DNA of 64,000 nt from Dictyostelium discoideum (lineage: Eukaryota), in contig CM000151.3 of assembly GCA_000004695.1 (NCBI GenBank), positions 1,472,001-1,536,000 of the forward strand, written 5' to 3'. The translations under genes were made by a program, and so were the position numbers. Positions 1 through 22,757 of this stretch are shown here, piece after piece; position 1 is the stretch's first letter; every line of letters begins with the position of its first letter. The notes below the pieces were generated by a model. It saw nothing but the letters and a program-made list of their open reading frames with translations, searched no databases and had not been told where the DNA came from.

Positions 1-38
1 TTTTTTTTTTTAAATCTATGAATTTAGTAATAACAGTA

Positions 39-2746
<2,708 letters not shown>

Positions 2747-2984
2747 TTTTTTTTTTTTTTTTTTTTAAATTAATATTTATAAAAATATAAATACTATAAA
2801 TACAAAAAAAAAAAAAAAAAAAAAAAATATTTATATAAAAAAAAAAAAAAACAATTCCATTTTTTATGTATAATAGCGAATATGGAGGAAATAAAAAAAA
2901 AAAAAAAAAATTTTTTTTTTTTTGAGGGCGAATTTTGTATTCTCTTAAAAAAGAAAAATTTGAGTGAAAAAAAAAAATCAACCG

Positions 2985-3021
<37 letters not shown>

Positions 3022-3262
3022 ATTCCCAAAATAGTTTTTTTTTTTTTTTTTTTTTAAACATATTTTCAGAGATTTTCCTTTAAATAAAAATATTAAAATA
3101 AAAAAATTAAAATTCTAATAAACAATATACAATTATTCCATTTTTTTAATTTTTTTAAACTTTTTTTTTTTTTTTTTTCTTTTTTGGGAAACGAAATGAA
3201 GAAATTAATAAATCTAATTTTTTCATATTTTTTTTTTTTTTTTTTTGGAATTTTTTAGTTTT

Positions 3263-3304
<42 letters not shown>

Positions 3305-3386
3305 AAAAACCAGTATTTTTTGGGTTTTTAATCATTTATTTTTTTTTTTTAATTAATTTTTTGAATTTTGATTGTGGAATAATAAA

Positions 3387-4202
3387 TTAAGATAAAAATG
3401 ATGGGATGCAATAATAACGTGGACAACCATTTGGTTTTGACGCATATGATTTTAAAGTGTATCCACCAGAACAACCTGGAACAACCAATGGACAAATTCC
3501 TCTATGTACACAACCACTGAATGATAAACAACGAGTTGCAGCGATAGTATAGGTTGGAATTGTACCATTGGCACATCTAACAGCAATTAATTCCTTTGGA
3601 CATAATTTTGGATCAGGTAAACTAATAAACATATAATCTATGGAGACGGTTTTATTTGAATCTATTCTTCCACTAACTGTGAACACAGATTCACCAGTGG
3701 TAACCTTATATTCCAACCAATCCATTGGAACAAACGATACATCTTGTGAGTAACTATTTTCAATTGAGTTTAGTTTCTCTGATTTGTTACTATTTAATTT
3801 CTTAATTTCAATATTTGAATTGGTTTCTTTTGAATCTACAATATAGAAATTATTCAATTCAGAATCGAAATTGAATGGTTTATCTGGCTTTGGTAATAGT
3901 CTAAAGATTTTTGATACTATAATCTCATCTTTTTTAATATCACCTTTTACAACTACCGTATATGATGGTGCAAATTTATATAGTGATTCATCAACTGTTG
4001 ATCCTCCACCCTTCACTGTTTGATTTAATGACTTAACATAAACTTCTGATTTATTTGAACCAACTTCACGAACGAAATAACCACCGCACATAGGATATGC
4101 ACATTTTCTTAAATCAGTTCTAATTGCCCAATATGATTCACTTGCATTTGCAACTAACGAAATTGTTGCAAAAAATACTATTAAACTTAAAATTATCTTC
4201 AT
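3387..4202 (-). CDS. Secreted cysteine-containing protein of unknown function, with a signal peptide.
   Basis: The N-terminus MKIILSLIVFFATISLVANA is a typical signal peptide. The C-terminal third is Cys-rich (CANGT..C..CVHRGICPLVVPGCSGGYTL..CPRYYC). The protein is 271 aa with no obvious introns. Function is unknown. Confidence 0.5.
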   Translation of the reverse strand: MKIILSLIVFFATISLVANASESYWAIRTDLRKCAYPMCGGYFVREVGSNKSEVYVKSLNQTVKGGGSTVDESLYKFAPSYTVVVKGDIKKDEIIVSKIFRLLPKPDKPFNFDSELNNFYIVDSKETNSNIEIKKLNSNKSEKLNSIENSYSQDVSFVPMDWLEYKVTTGESVFTVSGRIDSNKTVSIDYMFISLPDPKLCPKELIAVRCANGTIPTYTIAATRCLSFSGCVHRGICPLVVPGCSGGYTLKSYASKPNGCPRYYCIPSFLS

Positions 4203-5293
4203 TTTTTTTTTTTTATTATTATTTATTATTTAGCAAATAAAAAAAATAAAAAAAATTAATTATTTATACAATTTTTTTTTCTAAATATTTTTAAAATTAA
4301 AAATTAAAAAAATTAAAAAAAAAATAATTATTTTAATATATTAATTATTATATTAAATAAAGATTATTTATTTGAATTGGATGGTGATAAAAAAAAAAAA
4401 AAAAAAACATATTATTTTTTTTTTTATTTTTTTTTTAATAATTTTTATATTGGATAATTGCTCAGATCTAGTAAATGTGAATAACAATATTGTGTTACTT
4501 AAAAAAGTTGGTTATGATTAACCAAAAATTAAAAAGTAATCAAATAAAAATAAAAATAAAAAATAAAAAAAAAACAAAGAAATATTAAAAAAAAAAAAAA
4601 GTGTTTAATTTTTTTCCATTCTCAGTTAAAAGTATAATATGACTTTCCTACTTCATTTTAATAATTATCAAGTACTGAATCTCTCAAAACAAATTCAAAT
4701 AATTACTATTTATTTTTTAATAATTTAAAAAATAAAAAGAAAAAAAAAATTATATTAAATAAAATTAAACTAATATAATAATAATAAAATAATTAATTAA
4801 TTCAAATTATTTTTTTCTTTTTTTAAATAAATTTTTTTTTTTGTGAATAAAAAAAAAAATTTTTATTTTAATTAACAAAACTATAATAAATAAGATCTTA
4901 CAAAAACTATAATAAATAAAAAAATATATAATAAAAAAAATCAATACTTTGAGTTGATTAAAATAAATTATTCTTACCAAACAAAGTTAATTTAGTGAAT
5001 TCAATTTTTTGAGTCGATAAAGAGACTTGATTTATACCTTTATTTAATTTATTTAATTTTATTTTTTTTTTTAATTTAAATTTTATTTTTAATTTTTATT
5101 TTTTTCAAATTATTTTTTTTTTTTTTTTTTTTTTTAATTAAAACAACCACACTTGCGTGGTGGAATTTTATTGTAATTTATTAAAAAAAAAAAATAAAAA
5201 TAAAAAATCATACAAATACAAAATTTATATATATATATAATATTTTTAAATAATTATATTTTTTTTTTAAAATTTAAAATTAAAAAATTAAAA

Positions 5294-7498
<2,205 letters not shown>

Positions 7499-9670: not shown

Positions 9671-9910
9671 GAAACAAACAAAAAGAAAATAAAAACAAAT
9701 AAACAACTAAACAAAAGAAATAGTCAAATAATTATTATTATTATTTTTTTTTTTTTTTTTTTTTTAATTTATTTAATTTATACAACCATTCTCTTGTTTC
9801 TCCTTTCTATCTATCTATTTGTCTTTAAAAAGTTTATTATATATTTTTATCATTCTTTTTTGATTTTTTGATTTTCTTTTTTTTTTTTGACTTTCTTTTT
9901 TTTTTTTTTT

Positions 9911-10437
9911 TTAAAGACCTCTACCTTTGGTCATTTCCATAATTTTATTGTGAGTTTTAATATTTTGTCTTGAAATTTGTTTATAATAACGTTGACCATC
10001 TTCTGGTGATAATAATTTTACTGGTTGATCATATGGTAATTGATCTTCAATTTCAAATAACCAATCTGGGTATTTTGAATTCTCATCTGGTAATTTGGTT
10101 TTAAAAATAGTTGGTGATAATTTTTCTAATTTTAATGGAAGATTACCTCTATCTATATTATTTATTATTTATTATTATTTATTATTATTTATTATGTTTA
10201 ACCAACCAAACATAAATTTAATAAAAATAAAATAAAAAAAAAAAAAACATGTAAGTTTTTTATGCTGATAAAAAGTGAAATATTGATCATTATTAATAAA
10301 TATTGCTTACCAAATCTTTTCTTTTTTGCTGCACCTGGTTTCTTTTTACCACCAGCGGCGGCCTTTCCTTTTGGTTCTGCTCTTGCTATGAAGTTTGCTA
10401 CACCAAAAATAGATTTACGTGTAATAAGTGAGAACAT
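9911..10437 (-). CDS. Mitochondrial ribosomal protein mL54 (MRPL54-like). Two exons, complement(10311..10437) and complement(9911..10152), with a phase-1 intron of ~158 bp.
   Basis: Exon 1 encodes MFSLITRKSIFGVANFIARAEPKGKAAAGGKKKPGAAKKKRF, a presequence-like Lys-rich N-terminus, then donor ggtaag. Exon 2, after acceptor atag, encodes RGNLPLKLEKLSPTIFKTKLPDENSKYPDWLFEIEDQLPYDQPVKLLSPEDGQRYYKQISRQNIKTHNKIMEMTKGRGL*. This matches the mL54 core (EYPAWLFQL..LDPE..YWRLLRKHNIWRHNRL). The hand translation was checked codon by codon and the stop is at 9911-9913. Confidence 0.75.
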
Positions 10438-10651
10438 TGTTTATATATATAAATTAATCTGAAAAATAAAAAAATTGTAAAAAAAAAAAAAAAAAAATGA
10501 AAAACGAAAAAAAAAAAATTAAAAAAAATAAAAAAATGAAAATAAAACAAAAAAAATGAAAATGAATAAAACCAAAGAAAATCAAAGAAAAAAAAAGAAA
10601 TTTTATTTTTATATTTGGTTTATTATTAATATTATTATTATCACTTTAAAT

Positions 10652-10685
<34 letters not shown>

Positions 10686-11406
10686 CCCATTTTTGGATTT
10701 TTATTTTGTTTATTATTATTTTTAATTAAAAAAAAAAAAAAAAAAAAAAGACATTCCAAATAAAAGGCAATGACCACCTCGAAAAAGACAAACTAGGAAA
10801 TAGAAATTTTCATTTTTTTTTTTTTTTTTTTTTTTTTTATTTTTTTCCAATACCCCAAACGGAATTAAAAATAAAAATTAAAAAAAAAAAAACAAATAAA
10901 ATAAGATAAATATTTTTTTTAAAAATTAAACACGTTGTTTTAATTCTTTTAAAAGAATATCTTGAACAATTTTGATTTTTTTATTTTTAAATTTTTTTTT
11001 TTTTTTATTTTTATTTTTTTTTTTTTTTATTTTAAAATTTTTTTTTATTATTTTTTTTTATTATTATTTTTTTTTTTCTTATCTTTATTACCAAATAAAA
11101 ATTTTAATATAATAAAGAATAAATAAAGGAAATAAAAAAAAATTAATAATAAATCAAAAAAAATAAAAAAATAATTAATTAATAAACAAAAAAATAAAAA
11201 AAATAAATAAAAATATAAAAATAAAAAAAAATAAAATAAAAATAAATAAATAAAAAAAAAAAAAAAAAAAAAATCAAAAAAAAATTTAAAATTTAATTTT
11301 TTTTTTTTTTTTTTTTTTTCGATTTTTTAAAATTTCTAAAATAAATACAAAATTAAAAAAAATATAAATAAAAACCTAATAGTATTAATAAATAATAATA
11401 AATAAA

Positions 11407-14010: not shown

Positions 14011-14393
14011 CAGCATATAAATTAAACGTGTACATATAAACCAATATATCGTTTTAATTATTATTATAATTTCAATATTAAAACTACAAACCAATATTAA
14101 TAACTTAACTTTCATTATTTTTTTATATAAAACAAAAAAACAAAAAAAAAAAAAAAAAAAACAAAAAAAAAAAACAAATAAAAAAAACAAAAAAAATAAA
14201 ACATTACAAAATCAATACAGAACCAATTCACAAACCATTTTTTTTTTTTTTTTTTTTTTAATAATAAATTTTTATAGCAAGATCATCATCAAAAGTAATA
14301 GAAATAACGAGTGAGGAGCGAGACGAAAATAATAAATAAATAAATCAATCCACCCAAGGTAATATAATCTCAATAATTTAAATTTAATCATAT

Positions 14394-18716: not shown

Positions 18717-20243
18717 TTAATTTTTAAAAATAAATTTCACAATTTCAAAATAACATTTCCTAATTGCTTGATCAATTGTTGGTTTTGGATTGTTTTCAAT
18801 TTTTTTTAATTTGTTTTTTGATAAATAAAATTCAAATGATTTAACATCACCATTAAATAAATTATCAGGTGAGAAATTTTCATTTACAACTTGATCGTAA
18901 TTGGAGATAAGTTGTTTATTTTCATATAAATATTTAACAATTTCAAATTTACTTGTAAAACATTCAATTGGATATTTAAAATCTTTTTTATATTTAAATA
19001 TAAATTGTATGAAAATATCAAGGTATTCAATATCAAAAAGATTATTTGTAATATTTTCTACTACTCTTTCTAATAGTTTTATATTATTTAAAACTATTGA
19101 ATTATTATTATTATTATTTTTAATTAAAGATTGAAATTCTTCTTTTGATGGATTGGATGAAAGGCTTGATAAAATTATATTAATGTTGACATCGGTTAGT
19201 GAATTTAAATCTTCAGAGTAGTTAATGTTACACATTGACACACCTGATTTTAATTGTAAATTTTTAACGAAACCACCCCAAATATATTTGACAACTTGGA
19301 AATCCAATGGTTTTTGTAAATCACTACCATTGACCAAGAGAAAAAGTTTAGAAGAATTGATTTCAATAGTAGGATTTCTTGGGACAATGCCCTGCTCAAT
19401 TAAAAGTTTTGCAAATTCCATTGAAGAGAATTTACATGCAACTTGAACTAATACTTCTTTTGAAAAATTCGATATTAATTTTTTAAATTCACTTGTTGTT
19501 AATAAATAAGTGAAATGTTTAACTAAATTTCTTTTGACCAATGAGTATAATAATACTTGTAATTTATCCACACCACCATTAAGTTCAATATCTTTTTTAT
19601 AAAATTGAATTTGTTCTAAAAATATTTTATAATTTTCACTTTCGCCAAAAGGTATTAAATTATTAATTTGATTGGTATTATGCACTATTTGAGGACCCAA
19701 AGTGAAATTGAACATTGGTTGGTTGTTTTCATCTTTTTCTCTTTTTAAAAATTGAAAAATTTCAAAATTTCCATTAGTTGATGCTGCAACATTTAATATT
19801 GTTTCTTTATTTTTTAAAAATTCTGGGTTCGATTTAAAATAGTGGTAAATTAATTTAAATCTTTGAAATGACAATTCTTTATAACTTAATAAAAGATGGA
19901 ATTCATTATCTGCAACGTTGCAGATATTATCTACATTTTGATCTTGTAACCTTAATTGACAATACCAATATTTTGCAGGATTTTGAATTGCAACTTTAAA
20001 AAAAAAGTCAACAAAATAATTGAATACTTGATACATCTTTTTTTTTAATAAAATTCCCAAGTTTAAATCTTGTGTTTTCATTGACTCTGTAATTTTATCA
20101 TAGATACTATAGTCTAAAAAACCTCCATCTTTTGAGTCTTCAAACATTTGTTCATATTTGACATATCCCCATATAATTTTTGAAATAACTAAATTATTGA
20201 ATACTTTTTTATATAATTTATACATTTTTAAATTAAATTCCAT
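18717..20243 (-). CDS. Hypothetical protein, 508 aa, with degenerate ankyrin-like repeats.
   Basis: Several segments resemble the helix-turn-helix ankyrin consensus (..AIRKCYFEIVKFIF.., ..EFAKLLIEQGIVP.., ..KYEIVKYLYENK..). Confidence is low and no search was run. Confidence 0.45.
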   Translation of the reverse strand: MEFNLKMYKLYKKVFNNLVISKIIWGYVKYEQMFEDSKDGGFLDYSIYDKITESMKTQDLNLGILLKKKMYQVFNYFVDFFFKVAIQNPAKYWYCQLRLQDQNVDNICNVADNEFHLLLSYKELSFQRFKLIYHYFKSNPEFLKNKETILNVAASTNGNFEIFQFLKREKDENNQPMFNFTLGPQIVHNTNQINNLIPFGESENYKIFLEQIQFYKKDIELNGGVDKLQVLLYSLVKRNLVKHFTYLLTTSEFKKLISNFSKEVLVQVACKFSSMEFAKLLIEQGIVPRNPTIEINSSKLFLLVNGSDLQKPLDFQVVKYIWGGFVKNLQLKSGVSMCNINYSEDLNSLTDVNINIILSSLSSNPSKEEFQSLIKNNNNNNSIVLNNIKLLERVVENITNNLFDIEYLDIFIQFIFKYKKDFKYPIECFTSKFEIVKYLYENKQLISNYDQVVNENFSPDNLFNGDVKSFEFYLSKNKLKKIENNPKPTIDQAIRKCYFEIVKFIFKN

Positions 20244-20517: not shown

Positions 20518-20590
20518 GCTCGATTAGCTCAGTCGGCAGAGCGTGGTGCTAATAACGCCACGGTCGCAGGTTCGATCCCTGCATCGAGCA
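20518..20590 (+). tRNA. tRNA-Ile, anticodon AAT (decodes AUU/AUC/AUA via inosine), 73 nt, no encoded CCA.
   Basis: GCTCGATTAGCTCAGTCGGCAGAGCGTGGTGCTAATAACGCCACGGTCGCAGGTTCGATCCCTGCATCGAGCA folds as a cloverleaf. The acceptor stem is GCTCGAT/ATCGAGC, the D arm GCTC/GAGC, the anticodon stem TGGTG/CGCCA with loop CTAATAA, the T arm GCAGG/CCTGC with TTCGATC loop, and the discriminator is A. The internal A-box (TAGCTCAGTCGG) and B-box (GGTTCGATCC) are present. Confidence 0.85.
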
Positions 20591-20623
20591 ACGATATTTT
20601 AAAATATTGTGAAATAGATTACA

Positions 20624-20634
20624 GGTTCAATTCC
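20624..20634 (+). promoter_or_regulatory. Extra downstream B-box (ex-B box) GGTTCAATTCC, 34 bp 3' of the tRNA gene.
   Basis: It matches the B-box consensus GGTTCGANTCC. Many Dictyostelium tRNA genes carry a second external B box 20-40 bp downstream of the coding region. TFIIIC-type boxes are established knowledge. Confidence 0.5.
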
Positions 20635-20699
20635 CACTTCTGAAAAAGGGAAATAAAGATCCTGGAAATTAAAAAAAAAAAAAAAAAAAAAAAACCAAA

Positions 20700-21961
20700 C
20701 AACAAAAATGCTAGTGGATTTCAAGTTATTAATTTAATGAGAACCAAAAGAGCAAGATACCCACTAAAAGTAGGGGGCTGGAACATTTGGAATATAGAAT
20801 TGAGACAACTGGCGCAGAAACTTTGGATCATAAACCAGTTCATCCTAGCACTAGAAACCAAACAAACAAACTCATCTCATCACAAAAGCTGGGAATATCA
20901 GATCCAAAAAAACAAATTCACATCCAGATACCTAAAAGAAAACTTAGACGAATGGAACAAAATAAGAATAAAAAAAGCAATTTTCAACAATAATCTCACA
21001 TCCATAAAAAACGAAAATGGACAACCACTTTCACTGGCAGAATGGTATACCACAATTCAAGACCAAAATCCACCATCCCTAAAACGGAATTCCAATCATC
21101 TCTAAACTTAAGAGGCTACAGCTATAATCAACTCTTCAACAACATACTGAAGATAAAAGACCCTAAAACAAGAGACACAATGTTTAGATTCCATGCCAGA
21201 TGCCTTCCAATAAACTACCTTCACAACAAACAATGCCCACTCTGCAAAGAAGATATGAGCAAAGACCCATACGGTCACCTGTTCTTCTCATGCAAGAAAA
21301 CAAAACAATTCATAAAAATAAATAAACTCAAAAATTTCATCTATATTACCACAGGCAAAGGTAAAAACTGGCACCATACAAGAATTAGGCAAAATAACAA
21401 TTTCATTAATAGAATAACTCCAAAATTATCACCGATAGCCAAAAAAGATCAAGAAGTGAATGCAGATTACGCCAACCACAGATTCCACAAAGAATACTTT
21501 GAATGGAACTATAAAGCAATAGACTATGATCTAACCAGATCATTCGCATATAGAAACCTAATGGCCCTTATCCTCCACAACATTTGGATTTGGATTTGCA
21601 ATCAAATATACAGTGAAGATCCTTTAACAAATGAATCACTATCATACAGCTCCCTTCTAAAGAAATGGCACAAATTGGCCACTCTAGAATACATCAAAAA
21701 AGCAAAAGATCTAAAAAACTTATCAGCAAAAGACCATAATAACTTCAAAGATCCTAAGATCCTTCTCACCTCAACGATCAAGCTAAGAAAAACAACAGCT
21801 AATTACTATTGTATTCCAGAATCATCTCTCCCAAATATTATATCTTTTGATCAATTCATATGATTAAAATAACCCTTCAGCTTAAATGATAAGCCTATAA
21901 ATAAATATTAAATAAAAACTCGTATTAACACAGATGGATATATATCAATCTTGTTAATCCA

Positions 21962-21994
<33 letters not shown>
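20700..21994 (+). mobile_element. 5'-truncated non-LTR retrotransposon remnant, TRE3-like and tRNA-gene-targeted. It retains the ORF2 C-terminal Cys motif, a 3' UTR and an oligo(A) tail, and starts ~110 bp downstream of the tRNA-Ile gene.
   Basis: The ORFs 20737..21105 and 21042..21863 overlap in different frames, which suggests a frameshifted degenerate ORF2. ORF 21042..21863 ends with CPLCKEDMSKDPYGHLFFSCKKTKQF, the CCHC-type motif found at the C-terminus of non-LTR ORF2 proteins. Base composition is GC-richer than the surrounding DNA. An A28 tail lies at 21967-21994. The position of ~100 bp 3' of a tRNA gene is characteristic of Dictyostelium TRE3 elements. Subfamily not determined. Confidence 0.6.
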
Positions 21995-21997
<3 letters not shown>

Positions 21998-22757
21998 ATC
22001 TGATAAAGAATTTTAAAATATTATATATTTTATTTTAAAATTCTTAATTAGATTATTTTAAAAAAATAATACTTGTATGACACAATATTTAAAAAAAAAA
22101 AAATAAAAAAAAAAATTGTATTATCTTATTTATACCAAATTTTTCTTTAACATTAAATAATTCAAATAAAAATCGACTCAATTAAAATAAAAAAAAAATT
22201 TTAGATAAATATTAAAAATAAAAAATAAAAAAACAAAACAAAACAAAATAATTAGCAAATTAGTAGTTATAAAATTTTGATATCTAACCCAATTTCGTTA
22301 CCAAATATATTTATAATTAATTAATTAATTTTTTTGACTTTTAATTTTAAAGCAAAAAGGAATTTTGAAGGACCGATTCATTAAAATTTAGAATATTAAA
22401 TTTTTTTTTTATTCTGAAGTATAATAATAAAAATAATATAGATACCCCCCTACCTCTAACTGAAAAAATAAAATAAAATCTATAAATAGTGGTAAGTATC
22501 TAATTTAAGCAAAGATTAATTAATAAAGTTTAGGTATTTTTTTCGGATTTTTTTTCTCTTTTAAAAAAGTAGAAAAAAAAAAAAAAATCTAAAATCTACT
22601 TGTTTAAATTTGTCATTGACCAATGATATAAAAACATAGATATTTTTAAATTTCTTTTACTTCAAAAACTTGTATTAATTTGAAATAAAATTTAATATAC
22701 TAACAAAATTTTTTTTTCTGAGTGAATAATTTAAAGAAAAAAAAAGTTTAAAAAATC

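Follow-up and report, generated by a model that had tools for sequence, protein, structure and literature searches.

What lies behind the only tRNA gene in this 64-kb window, the whole stretch of Dictyostelium discoideum DNA that was analyzed, and how did it come to be there? An original prediction, made from the sequence alone, had read the locus as a tRNA-Ile(AAU) gene with an external B box (ex-B), followed by the remnant of a TRE3-type non-LTR retrotransposon. We found the following features.

20518..20590, + strand: tRNA-Ile(AAU) gene (ARAGORN and Rfam RF00005)
20597..20600, + strand: TTTT run, 6 nt past the end of tRNA-Ile (read from the sequence)
20624..20634, + strand: ex-B box GGTTCAATTCC (pattern match and conservation in orthologues)
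20671..20694, + strand: A24 run abutting the 5' junction of the element (read from the sequence)
20695..21863, + strand: TRE3 ORF2 remnant, about aa 830 to 1260 of the 1260-aa ORF2 P0032, after the reverse transcriptase (RT) domain
21234..21293, + strand: zinc-finger-type motif CPLCKEDMSKDPYGHLFFSC, CX2CX10HX4C (conserved in relatives)
21864..21966, + strand: 3' UTR of the element, 103 nt, ending in ...CAATCTTGTTAATCCAATATT (same 3' end in siblings)
21967..21995, + strand: poly(A) tail, A29 (read from the sequence)
21996..21998, + strand: CCA in the right flank, repeating the CCA after the left A-run (20695-20697)

The tRNA-Ile(AAU) gene and its external B box

Using ARAGORN, we found a tRNA-Ile gene with the anticodon AAT on the plus strand at 20518-20590. 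Rfam RF00005 matched the same gene over the full model with 64.1 bits (E=5e-13; gathering score, 29), and this was the sole tRNA or Rfam match within the 64-kb window. As is characteristic of a eukaryotic tRNA gene, it combines an above-threshold cloverleaf with an internal B box (GGTTCGATCCC, 20569-20579) and a T-run on its 3' side. The TTTT run is presumably the RNA polymerase III (Pol III) terminator. In AX4, the locus lies on chromosome 2 next to DDB_G0272134. We retrieved the orthologous tRNA-Ile loci of two related, diverged lineages (L005 and L006) via a neighboring gene and found that the tRNA sequence is 100% identical in both. The clean cloverleaf that had been predicted is thus borne out by two methods, and we concluded that the tRNA-Ile(AAU) gene is genuine.

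The prediction had also placed an ex-B about 34 bp 3' of the tRNA. We found that GGTTCAATTCC begins at nucleotide 34 (+34) after the end of tRNA-Ile, past the TTTT run, and that consensus and conservation agree with this assignment. The pattern GGTTCRANTCC has one match in the 64-kb window (0.06 expected). The block CAGGTTC[A/G]ATTCCCA[C/T]TTCTGAA is kept in both L005 and L006, and the spacer around ex-B has diverged there. A comparable ex-B occurs at +31 to +34 behind seven of the eight tRNA genes examined. The published dictyostelid ex-B has the consensus GTTCRAnYC, occurs at 66% of tRNA genes, and lies about 41 bp downstream of them (PMC3159450); published frequencies range over 66-80% (PMC3159450, PMC5911963). 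Like it, the window box fits GTTCRAnYC, lies tens of base pairs past the tRNA and beyond the T-run, and is without the GTC that marks internal B boxes; we found no feature in which the two differ. By sequence comparison, we concluded that 20624-20634 is a real dictyostelid ex-B that two diverged Dictyostelium lineages have conserved at this locus.

The element remnant and its relatives

We found a 5'-truncated non-LTR retrotransposon at 20695-21995; of a full length of about 5.2 kb, about 1.3 kb is left. A GC-richer segment had been predicted from about 20700; its composition (GC, 0.32 versus about 0.2 around it) held, but its start did not, as homology to the repeat family begins at 20694/20695. 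Measured from the end of tRNA-Ile at 20590, the element starts at +105 on the same (plus) strand, which matches the predicted canonical position about 100 bp downstream.

The remnant retains the last 430 or so codons of the 1260-codon ORF2, and its protein matches P0032 from NNKNASGFQ on. It is split into two frame pieces (20698-21105 and 21042-21863). These are ORF2 frames, as predicted, but a single frameshift accounts for them rather than several: a 1-nt deletion at about 21069 (CCAACC to CCACC) relative to siblings L001 and L002. An ATG-initiated ORF (21180-21863) is intact in the window, and the ORF2 stop codon is 21861-21863. Relatives in D. purpureum and D. dimigraforme share the CX2CX10HX4C finger. 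The ORF2 C terminus is about 190 aa farther on, so the Cys motif of the original prediction is conserved but is not strictly C-terminal. With the window fragment alone, Pfam gave a weak zf-RVT match only (E=0.021, below the curated cutoff). The predicted 3' UTR was recovered, and the same 3' end, CAATCTTGTTAATCCAATATT, precedes the poly(A) in all siblings compared (L001, three L002 copies, and L004). The tail, given earlier as A28 ending at 21994, is A29 and ends at 21995; sibling tails have about 20 to 31 A. Neither a promoter nor a 5' UTR of the element is left in the window copy.

The siblings are 97.5-99.4% identical. The window copy shares 99.4% DNA identity with the L001 copy over 956 bp, and 97.5% and 99.4% with the full-length element at L002 9457-14607 (positions 3931-5151 of that element); the L004 copy is 99.4% identical to the same full-length reference. 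In that reference, ORF1 encodes 359 aa, and ORF2, shifted to the -1 frame, begins before ORF1 ends. Its ORF2 product, P0032, has an RVT_1 domain at aa 551-760, a Cys/His finger, and a weak Exo_endo_phos match at aa 36-280 that is below the cutoff. The full-length L002 sibling thus has the layout published for TREs, and the window copy retains the part from behind the RT domain to the tail.

TRE3 elements are described as sharing the orientation of the tRNA gene and lying on its downstream side, at a distance of 40-150 bp (PMC5911963) or about 100 bp (PMC5006619). The siblings at three further loci, like the window copy, fall in this range. The L001 copy lies at +56 after tRNA-Leu(UAA), the L004 copy at +125 after tRNA-Ala(AGC), and the L002 element, which heads a tandem of three copies, at about +90 to +150 after tRNA-Leu(CAA), each on the tRNA strand. 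A relative with 65-72% aa identity in D. cf. discoideum (L003) begins 43 bp after tRNA-Lys, also on the same strand. The fifth copy, L007, is part of a transposon cluster; the 8 kb upstream of it contain no tRNA gene on the same strand, so direct tRNA adjacency holds at four of the five loci examined.

TRE3 elements have two ORFs, with endonuclease, RT, and zinc finger in ORF2, short UTRs, and poly(A) (PMC5006619); a -1 frameshift is required for ORF2, as stated for TRE3-A (PMC5911963). The family studied here shares with TRE3-A (formerly Tdd-3) the downstream distance, the orientation, the poly(A), the frequency of 5' truncation, copies in tandem behind a single tRNA gene, a pair of ORFs of which the second is in the -1 frame, the order of ORF2 domains, and a high number of near-identical copies in AX4. 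Nothing that we observed departs from the description of the family, of which the window copy represents a 3' piece of 1.3 kb with one frameshift. TRE5-A (DRE) belongs to the same TRE superfamily, also targets tRNA genes, and has the same ORF2 domain order. In contrast to the window element, TRE5 targets the region about 50 bp upstream of a tRNA gene, where it is oriented opposite to that gene, and its UTRs are modular (A/B/C; PMC3159450, PMC5911963); the 3' ends of the two also differ. L004 also contains a TRE5-like element, placed upstream of tRNA-Ala and oppositely oriented; its ORF2 and that of the family studied here share only 27% aa identity across endonuclease and RT. The family also resembles 5'-truncated human and other mammalian LINE-1 insertions in its endonuclease and RT, presumed target-primed reverse transcription, a poly(A) tail next to a putative A-rich target-site duplication, and 5' truncation that is possibly resolved by microhomology; RT relatives of the family at about 30% identity are annotated as LINE-1 type. 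Unlike the window family, LINE-1 does not target tRNA genes, and its ORF1 is unrelated.

In neither L005 nor L006 did the orthologous tRNA-Ile locus show any sign of the element. Compared with five siblings, the window copy has only two private substitutions and one private indel in about 900 bp; mismatches unique to it lie at 21713 and 21939. Together, these observations argue for a recent insertion. The AT-rich spacers of L005 and L006 have diverged, with other indels and an (AAT)n microsatellite, so the comparison addresses presence or absence of the element rather than a base-level empty site. Judged from these alignments, the window insertion is lineage specific and young.

Alternative readings of the fragment

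Taken together, family, architecture, position, and orientation support the predicted reading of a 5'-truncated, tRNA-targeted, TRE3-type non-LTR element, with minor corrections. We are highly confident that the locus holds a recent, dead, 5'-truncated TRE3-type insertion, most likely TRE3-A, 105 nt behind a functional-looking, ex-B-bearing tRNA-Ile(AAU) gene. In AX4, the family accounts for at least 15 called RT-bearing fragments (99% identity or more) and 9 to 10 called C-terminal fragments (98-100% identity over both sets), and three more distant RT groups have 1 to 2 called fragments each (46-61% identity). Because the family dominates the called fragments and TRE3-A is the most abundant TRE3, with the majority of TRE3 copies (PMC5006619), the window fragment probably belongs to TRE3-A, an argument from abundance that gene-calling bias could distort. 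The fragment could instead be TRE3-B, -C, or -D: the abundance depends on which fragments were called as genes, and D. discoideum strains do carry a minimum of two further TRE3-like C-terminal families (P0004 and P0008; 60-67% aa identity). The numerical dominance in AX4 and the overlapping ORFs with a -1 frame, which agree with the description of TRE3-A, speak against these subfamilies, and we consider them the less likely assignment.

A domesticated, expressed host gene is a different way to read the retained frame of 227 to 273 aa, which carries the zinc finger and the C-terminal region. Several AX4 gene models with a length of exactly 227 aa correspond to siblings (for example, DDB_G0277715 and DDB_G0292548), and the ATG-initiated ORF of the window copy could encode such a product. 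However, the copies, which each follow a different tRNA gene, are 99% identical in DNA, 3' UTR and poly(A) included, and neutral, recent insertions would be expected to look like this. Related lineages have no insertion at the locus, the element promoter and 5' UTR are missing, and the 227-aa product of the window has no called-gene record by exact look-up in an index that seemingly leaves out AX4, in which the 508-aa neighbor ORF and the AX4 proteins P0033, P0037, and P0039 had no match either. We therefore regard domestication as very improbable. Poorer still is the case for another tRNA-associated element (TRE5, Skipper-2, DGLT-A, or NLTR) or for coincidental proximity to the tRNA gene. Skipper-2 likewise inserts downstream of tRNA genes (PMC5006619), and L007 shows that a copy may lack an adjacent tRNA gene. 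Against other kinds of element stand the absence of LTRs and integrase, the poly(A) tail, the L1-type RT relatives, and, for TRE5, the low ORF2 identity, upstream position, and opposite orientation given above. Against coincidence, the four tRNA-adjacent loci all lie within 150 bp downstream on the same strand. Given a genome size of about 34 Mb and about 418 tRNA genes, such a position would arise by chance in roughly 0.1-0.2% of insertions. (The tRNA gene number is from PMC5633606.) This last explanation is already largely refuted, and we give it a negligible likelihood.

Junctions, proposed insertion mechanism, and significance

We looked around the window element for a target-site duplication, which target-primed reverse transcription is expected to leave in variable length. 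Both junctions consist of an A-run, A24 on the left and A29 on the right, followed by CCA, so an A(n)CCA duplication is possible but ambiguous, and an unambiguous one was not found. The left CCA (20695-20697) is also element sequence, a Pro codon (reference, GGCACCAAAC; window, AAAACCAAAC). We therefore rejected CCA as the definite end of an A(n)CCA duplication, and only microhomology or an ambiguous duplication can be claimed. As a candidate, the CCA may represent both the end of a target-site duplication and microhomology at the 5' junction. Among the siblings, the L004 copy has a clean 12-bp target-site duplication (TATTCATTTCCA), and the L001 copy has no recognizable one at its flanks.

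The A24 run itself is not unusual, because the 64-kb window contains 55 runs of at least 20 A or T. An A-rich tract occurs at the matching place in the orthologous loci L005 and L006. The run is probably native A-rich target DNA together with the left copy of a putative target-site duplication that contains oligo(A), and the A29 tail may include the A portion of the right copy. We also considered that A24 could be the poly(A) of an older, tiny TRE remnant. This was rejected, as the orthologous L005 spacer can be aligned to the sequence as far as GATCC, and that sequence has no match in the TRE-bearing loci examined.

We propose that an active master copy of about 5.2 kb would have supplied the RNA and an ORF2 protein with endonuclease, RT, and zinc finger. 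The complex would have been guided to the region downstream of tRNA-gene B boxes, perhaps via Pol III factors. Targeting via these factors has been demonstrated in the literature for TRE5-A only, and no experimentally established TRE3 targeting mechanism is described in PMC5006619. The endonuclease may then have introduced a bottom-strand nick into the A/T-rich tract that follows ex-B, where the poly(A) tail would prime reverse transcription on the T-run. The cDNA would have ended after about 1.3 kb, or may have been joined there at the ACCA microhomology, leaving the C-terminal third of ORF2, the 3' UTR, and the tail. A later 1-nt deletion would have broken the remaining frame. There is a slim prospect that the locus holds more than this. 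The 5' junction (A-run plus ACCA) might record a microhomology-guided truncation and, with the ex-B block and the A/T tract, could define a nick-site preference of the TRE3 endonuclease, or the intact 227-aa C-terminal ORFs might be expressed.

The combination of tRNA-Ile, ex-B, and TRE3 fragment is known biology. The arrangement is textbook in the Dictyostelium genome, so the locus is an ordinary one. A TRE accompanies 61% of the tRNA genes of D. discoideum (PMC5006619). The finding has little import beyond annotation. Database relatives of the element proteins are all named "hypothetical protein," and such models (the 227-aa family and one that translates through a tRNA gene) are TRE3 fragments that should be masked. 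Modest added value comes from the conservation of ex-B across lineages at the orthologous locus, where the surrounding spacer is not conserved, and from placing this particular insertion as a lineage-specific, young one. The locus is another case of retrotransposons sparing the genes of a compact genome by landing beside tRNA genes.

The tRNA-Ile gene and its external B box

The window has a GC content of ~22%. The full identity of the ORF upstream of the tRNA to an AX4 gene assigns it to D. discoideum AX4 or a strain nearly identical to it. ARAGORN called a single tRNA in the 64 kb, and the Rfam tRNA model matched the same interval end to end (64.1 bits, E=5e-13; gathering score, 29) with no noncanonical pairs flagged. 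Scanning all 64 kb at the gathering threshold gave no other Rfam family. The two methods thus agree on a genuine tRNA-Ile(AAU) at 20518-20590, as originally predicted. The features of the locus are as follows.

18720-20243, minus strand: ORF just upstream of the tRNA, AX4 DDB_G0272134 at 100% identity
20518-20590, plus strand: tRNA-Ile, anticodon AAT
20569-20579: internal B box GGTTCGATCCC, within the tRNA
20597-20600: TTTT run 3' of the tRNA, presumably the Pol III terminator
20624-20634: ex-B box GGTTCAATTCC, beginning 34 nt past the tRNA end
21234-21293: motif CPLCKEDMSKDPYGHLFFSC, of the form CX2CX10HX4C
21861-21863: stop codon
21864-21966: 3' UTR
21967-21995: poly(A) tail, A29

The consensus GGTTCRANTCC occurs once in the window, at the ex-B box, with 0.06 matches expected from shuffles. 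Via the gene neighboring the tRNA, we retrieved orthologous loci from a divergent D. discoideum strain (L005; flanking DNA ~91-92% identical to the window) and from D. cf. discoideum (L006; ~89%). We found that the tRNA is 100% conserved in both and that the block CAGGTTC[A/G]ATTCCCA[C/T]TTCTGAA around the ex-B box is nearly invariant; the tRNA-to-ex-B spacer and the DNA beyond the box have drifted. The sole consensus match and the conserved block bear out the predicted ex-B box 34 bp downstream. A similar box starts 31 to 34 nt past the tRNA end in seven of the eight tRNA genes from the loci examined. Previous work found the ex-B core GTTCRAnYC at 66% of D. discoideum tRNA genes, ~41 bp downstream (PMC3159450), and ex-B boxes at ~80% of them (PMC5911963), and both our box and its frequency behind tRNA genes agree with this.

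At L006, an LTR retrotransposon (2233-5806), whose 1031-aa product carries RVT_1, RNase H, and integrase domains, lies directly upstream of the orthologous tRNA, in the position described for DGLT-A-type elements, with no TRE3 behind. Set against the TRE3 in the window, this means that elements of different classes struck the same tRNA gene in independent events in the sister lineages.

Anatomy of the retroelement fragment

Two reading-frame pieces within 20698-21863 match only Dictyostelium "hypothetical proteins," the best at 99% identity. One member of the matched cluster, P0032 (1260 aa; UniParc, unnamed), represents an entire ORF2, with a Pfam RVT_1 domain at aa 551-760 and a weak, below-cutoff Exo_endo_phos match at aa 36-280. 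The window fragment aligns to P0032 from ~aa 830 (NNKNASGFQ...) through the final residue, and because the match starts only there, the fragment retains none of ORF1, the endonuclease, or the RT. DNA homology to a full-length copy (L002, 9457-14607; strain GCA_054883475.1), with identities of 97.5% and 99.4%, extends as far as the poly(A) tail. The element had been predicted from ~20700; it is present, but homology begins at 20694/20695, element position 3931 of 5151. Since the L002 copy has a ~76-bp deletion absent from the window, P0032, and another family copy (L007), the intact element is ~5.2 kb.

The ORF2-like frames, described as frameshifted, were confirmed by P0032, but the sole break is a 1-nt deletion at ~21069 (CCAACC to CCACC, relative to L001, L002, and P0032). 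The Cys motif CPLCKEDMSKDPYGHLFFSC held up and is conserved in D. purpureum and D. dimigraforme relatives; zf-RVT gave a subthreshold Pfam match only. The 3' UTR and tail both exist, but the tail is one base longer than the A28 first reported. All sibling copies share the 3' terminus ...CAATCTTGTTAATCCAATATT, followed by A20-31.

Assignment to TRE3

TRE3 is a non-LTR element with two ORFs, an ORF2 encoding endonuclease, RT, and a zinc finger, and a poly(A) tail; a -1 frameshift into ORF2 is stated for TRE3-A (PMC5006619, PMC5911963). In the L002 copy, ORF1 is 359 aa (9774-10853), and the ORF2 frame opens at ~10772 in the -1 frame, overlapping the ORF1 end. TRE3 lies 40 to 150 bp downstream of tRNA genes and shares their orientation (PMC5911963), and we found the following element starts past the tRNA end.

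Window: tRNA-Ile(AAU), +105, same strand
L001: tRNA-Leu(UAA), +56, same strand
L004: tRNA-Ala(AGC), +125, same strand; clean 12-bp target-site duplication TATTCATTTCCA
L002: tRNA-Leu(CAA), about +90 to +150, same strand; first of three tandem copies
L003 (D. cf. discoideum): tRNA-Lys(UUU), +43; 65-72% aa-identical relative

The L007 copy, in a transposon cluster, is an exception, with no same-strand tRNA gene in the 8 kb upstream. Tandem and nested arrays have been described for TREs (PMC5391098). The family's ORF2 is distinct from that of a TRE5-like element at L004, which is only 27% identical to P0032; the TRE5-like element lies upstream of the same tRNA-Ala(AGC) in the opposite orientation and has a 451-aa ORF1 and an RVT_1-bearing ORF2 (TRE5-A ORF1 is 51 kDa [PMC5911963]). 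Distant RT relatives (~30% identity) are annotated as LINE-1 type. Architecture, position, and orientation each withstood testing, as expected of a 5'-truncated TRE3-type element behind the tRNA.

Among AX4 called proteins, the window's family gives at least 15 RT-bearing fragments at ≥99% and 9 to 10 C-terminal fragments; three more distant RT groups (46-61% identity) give one or two each. Because the family dominates these fragments and TRE3-A is the most abundant TRE3 (PMC5006619), TRE3-A is the likeliest label and probably the right one, with the caveat that it comes from abundance, which gene-calling bias could distort.

Several other copies and relatives were seen. The tRNA-Ala(AGC) at L004 is flanked on both sides, by the TRE5-like element upstream (1-4302) and a 5'-truncated copy of the window's family downstream (4940-5806). 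At L002 (6518-6590), the first tandem copy, internally deleted, opens with a duplicated 37-bp 5'-terminal segment, GAAAAAA(A)CCGTACCGCGATCAAGAGGATACAAGATAC, and the next begins a little deeper in the element, at CAAGATACACG; these 5' ends may be relevant to the start site of the family's full-length transcripts. The L007 copy (9702-11244), a fifth of the family, lies among LTR-retrotransposon genes and is split at element position ~3662 by ~1.5 kb of DNA unrelated to it; on the opposite strand, a TRE3-like fragment (69% identical) follows ~146 bp behind a second tRNA-Ile(AAU) gene (14054-14126). The predicted start of P0004 (D. discoideum strain ACTFIW, gene ACTFIW_009326) reads through a tRNA-Ile(AAU) gene (…SQSAERGANNATVAGSIPASS…), after which comes a TRE3-like C-terminal fragment; this belongs to a sister subfamily and shares 67% identity with the window's. 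The model is an annotation artifact covering another tRNA-Ile copy with TRE3 behind. A diverged TRE3-like ORF2 C-terminal fragment at L001 (3532-4772, minus strand; ~47% aa and 65% nt identity to the family) lies ~1.1 kb from the tRNA-Leu gene in the opposite orientation. ARAGORN found no tRNA gene beside it on the same strand, and it may be an old copy with a decayed target or mark an orphan B-box target.

Insertion site, age, and mechanism

Compared with five siblings over ~900 bp, the window copy has as private changes two substitutions (21713 and 21939) and the 1-nt deletion. No element similarity, DNA or protein, was found within ±7 kb at L005 or L006. Because private changes are few and both orthologous loci are empty, the insertion is young and specific to the AX4 lineage.

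The base-level empty site is not recoverable from L005 or L006, given how far their AT-rich spacers have diverged and the other indels in them. The left junction reads ...GGAAATT-A24-CCAAAC(element) and the right (element)...AATATT-A29-CCATCTG. At the left, CCA is element sequence itself (the reference reads GGCACCAAAC). On the simplest reading, the target was ...ATT-A(n)-CCATCTG..., nicked in the bottom-strand T run; the duplication would be the A's, possibly ending in CCA, and the 5' end would have joined at ACCA microhomology. We take the chance of CCA after an A run to be ~0.005 in the window's composition, so its presence behind both runs is suggestive, not proof, of more than coincidence. 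The A24 is plausibly native target DNA, because L005 and L006 carry an A-rich tract there and the window is rich in long runs of A or T (55 of at least 20). The right flank includes, at 21999-22047, an inverted repeat with imperfect arms (TCTGATAAAGAATTTTAAAAT ... ATTTTAAAATTCTTAATTAGA), and L005 has a recognizable counterpart of one of them.

An L1-like element, directed to the DNA that follows a Pol III gene's B boxes, would have produced the insertion through target-primed reverse transcription, with 5' truncation afterwards. Of this, our data show the hallmarks in structure and the association of the family with tRNA genes. TRE3 would recognize TFIIIC or B boxes; interaction at the protein level with Pol III factors has been demonstrated for TRE5-A alone (PMC5911963, PMC5006619). 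We concluded that the original prediction was essentially right in both observation and interpretation and that the tRNA with its TRE3 fragment is a standard part of the D. discoideum genome that earlier work has described.
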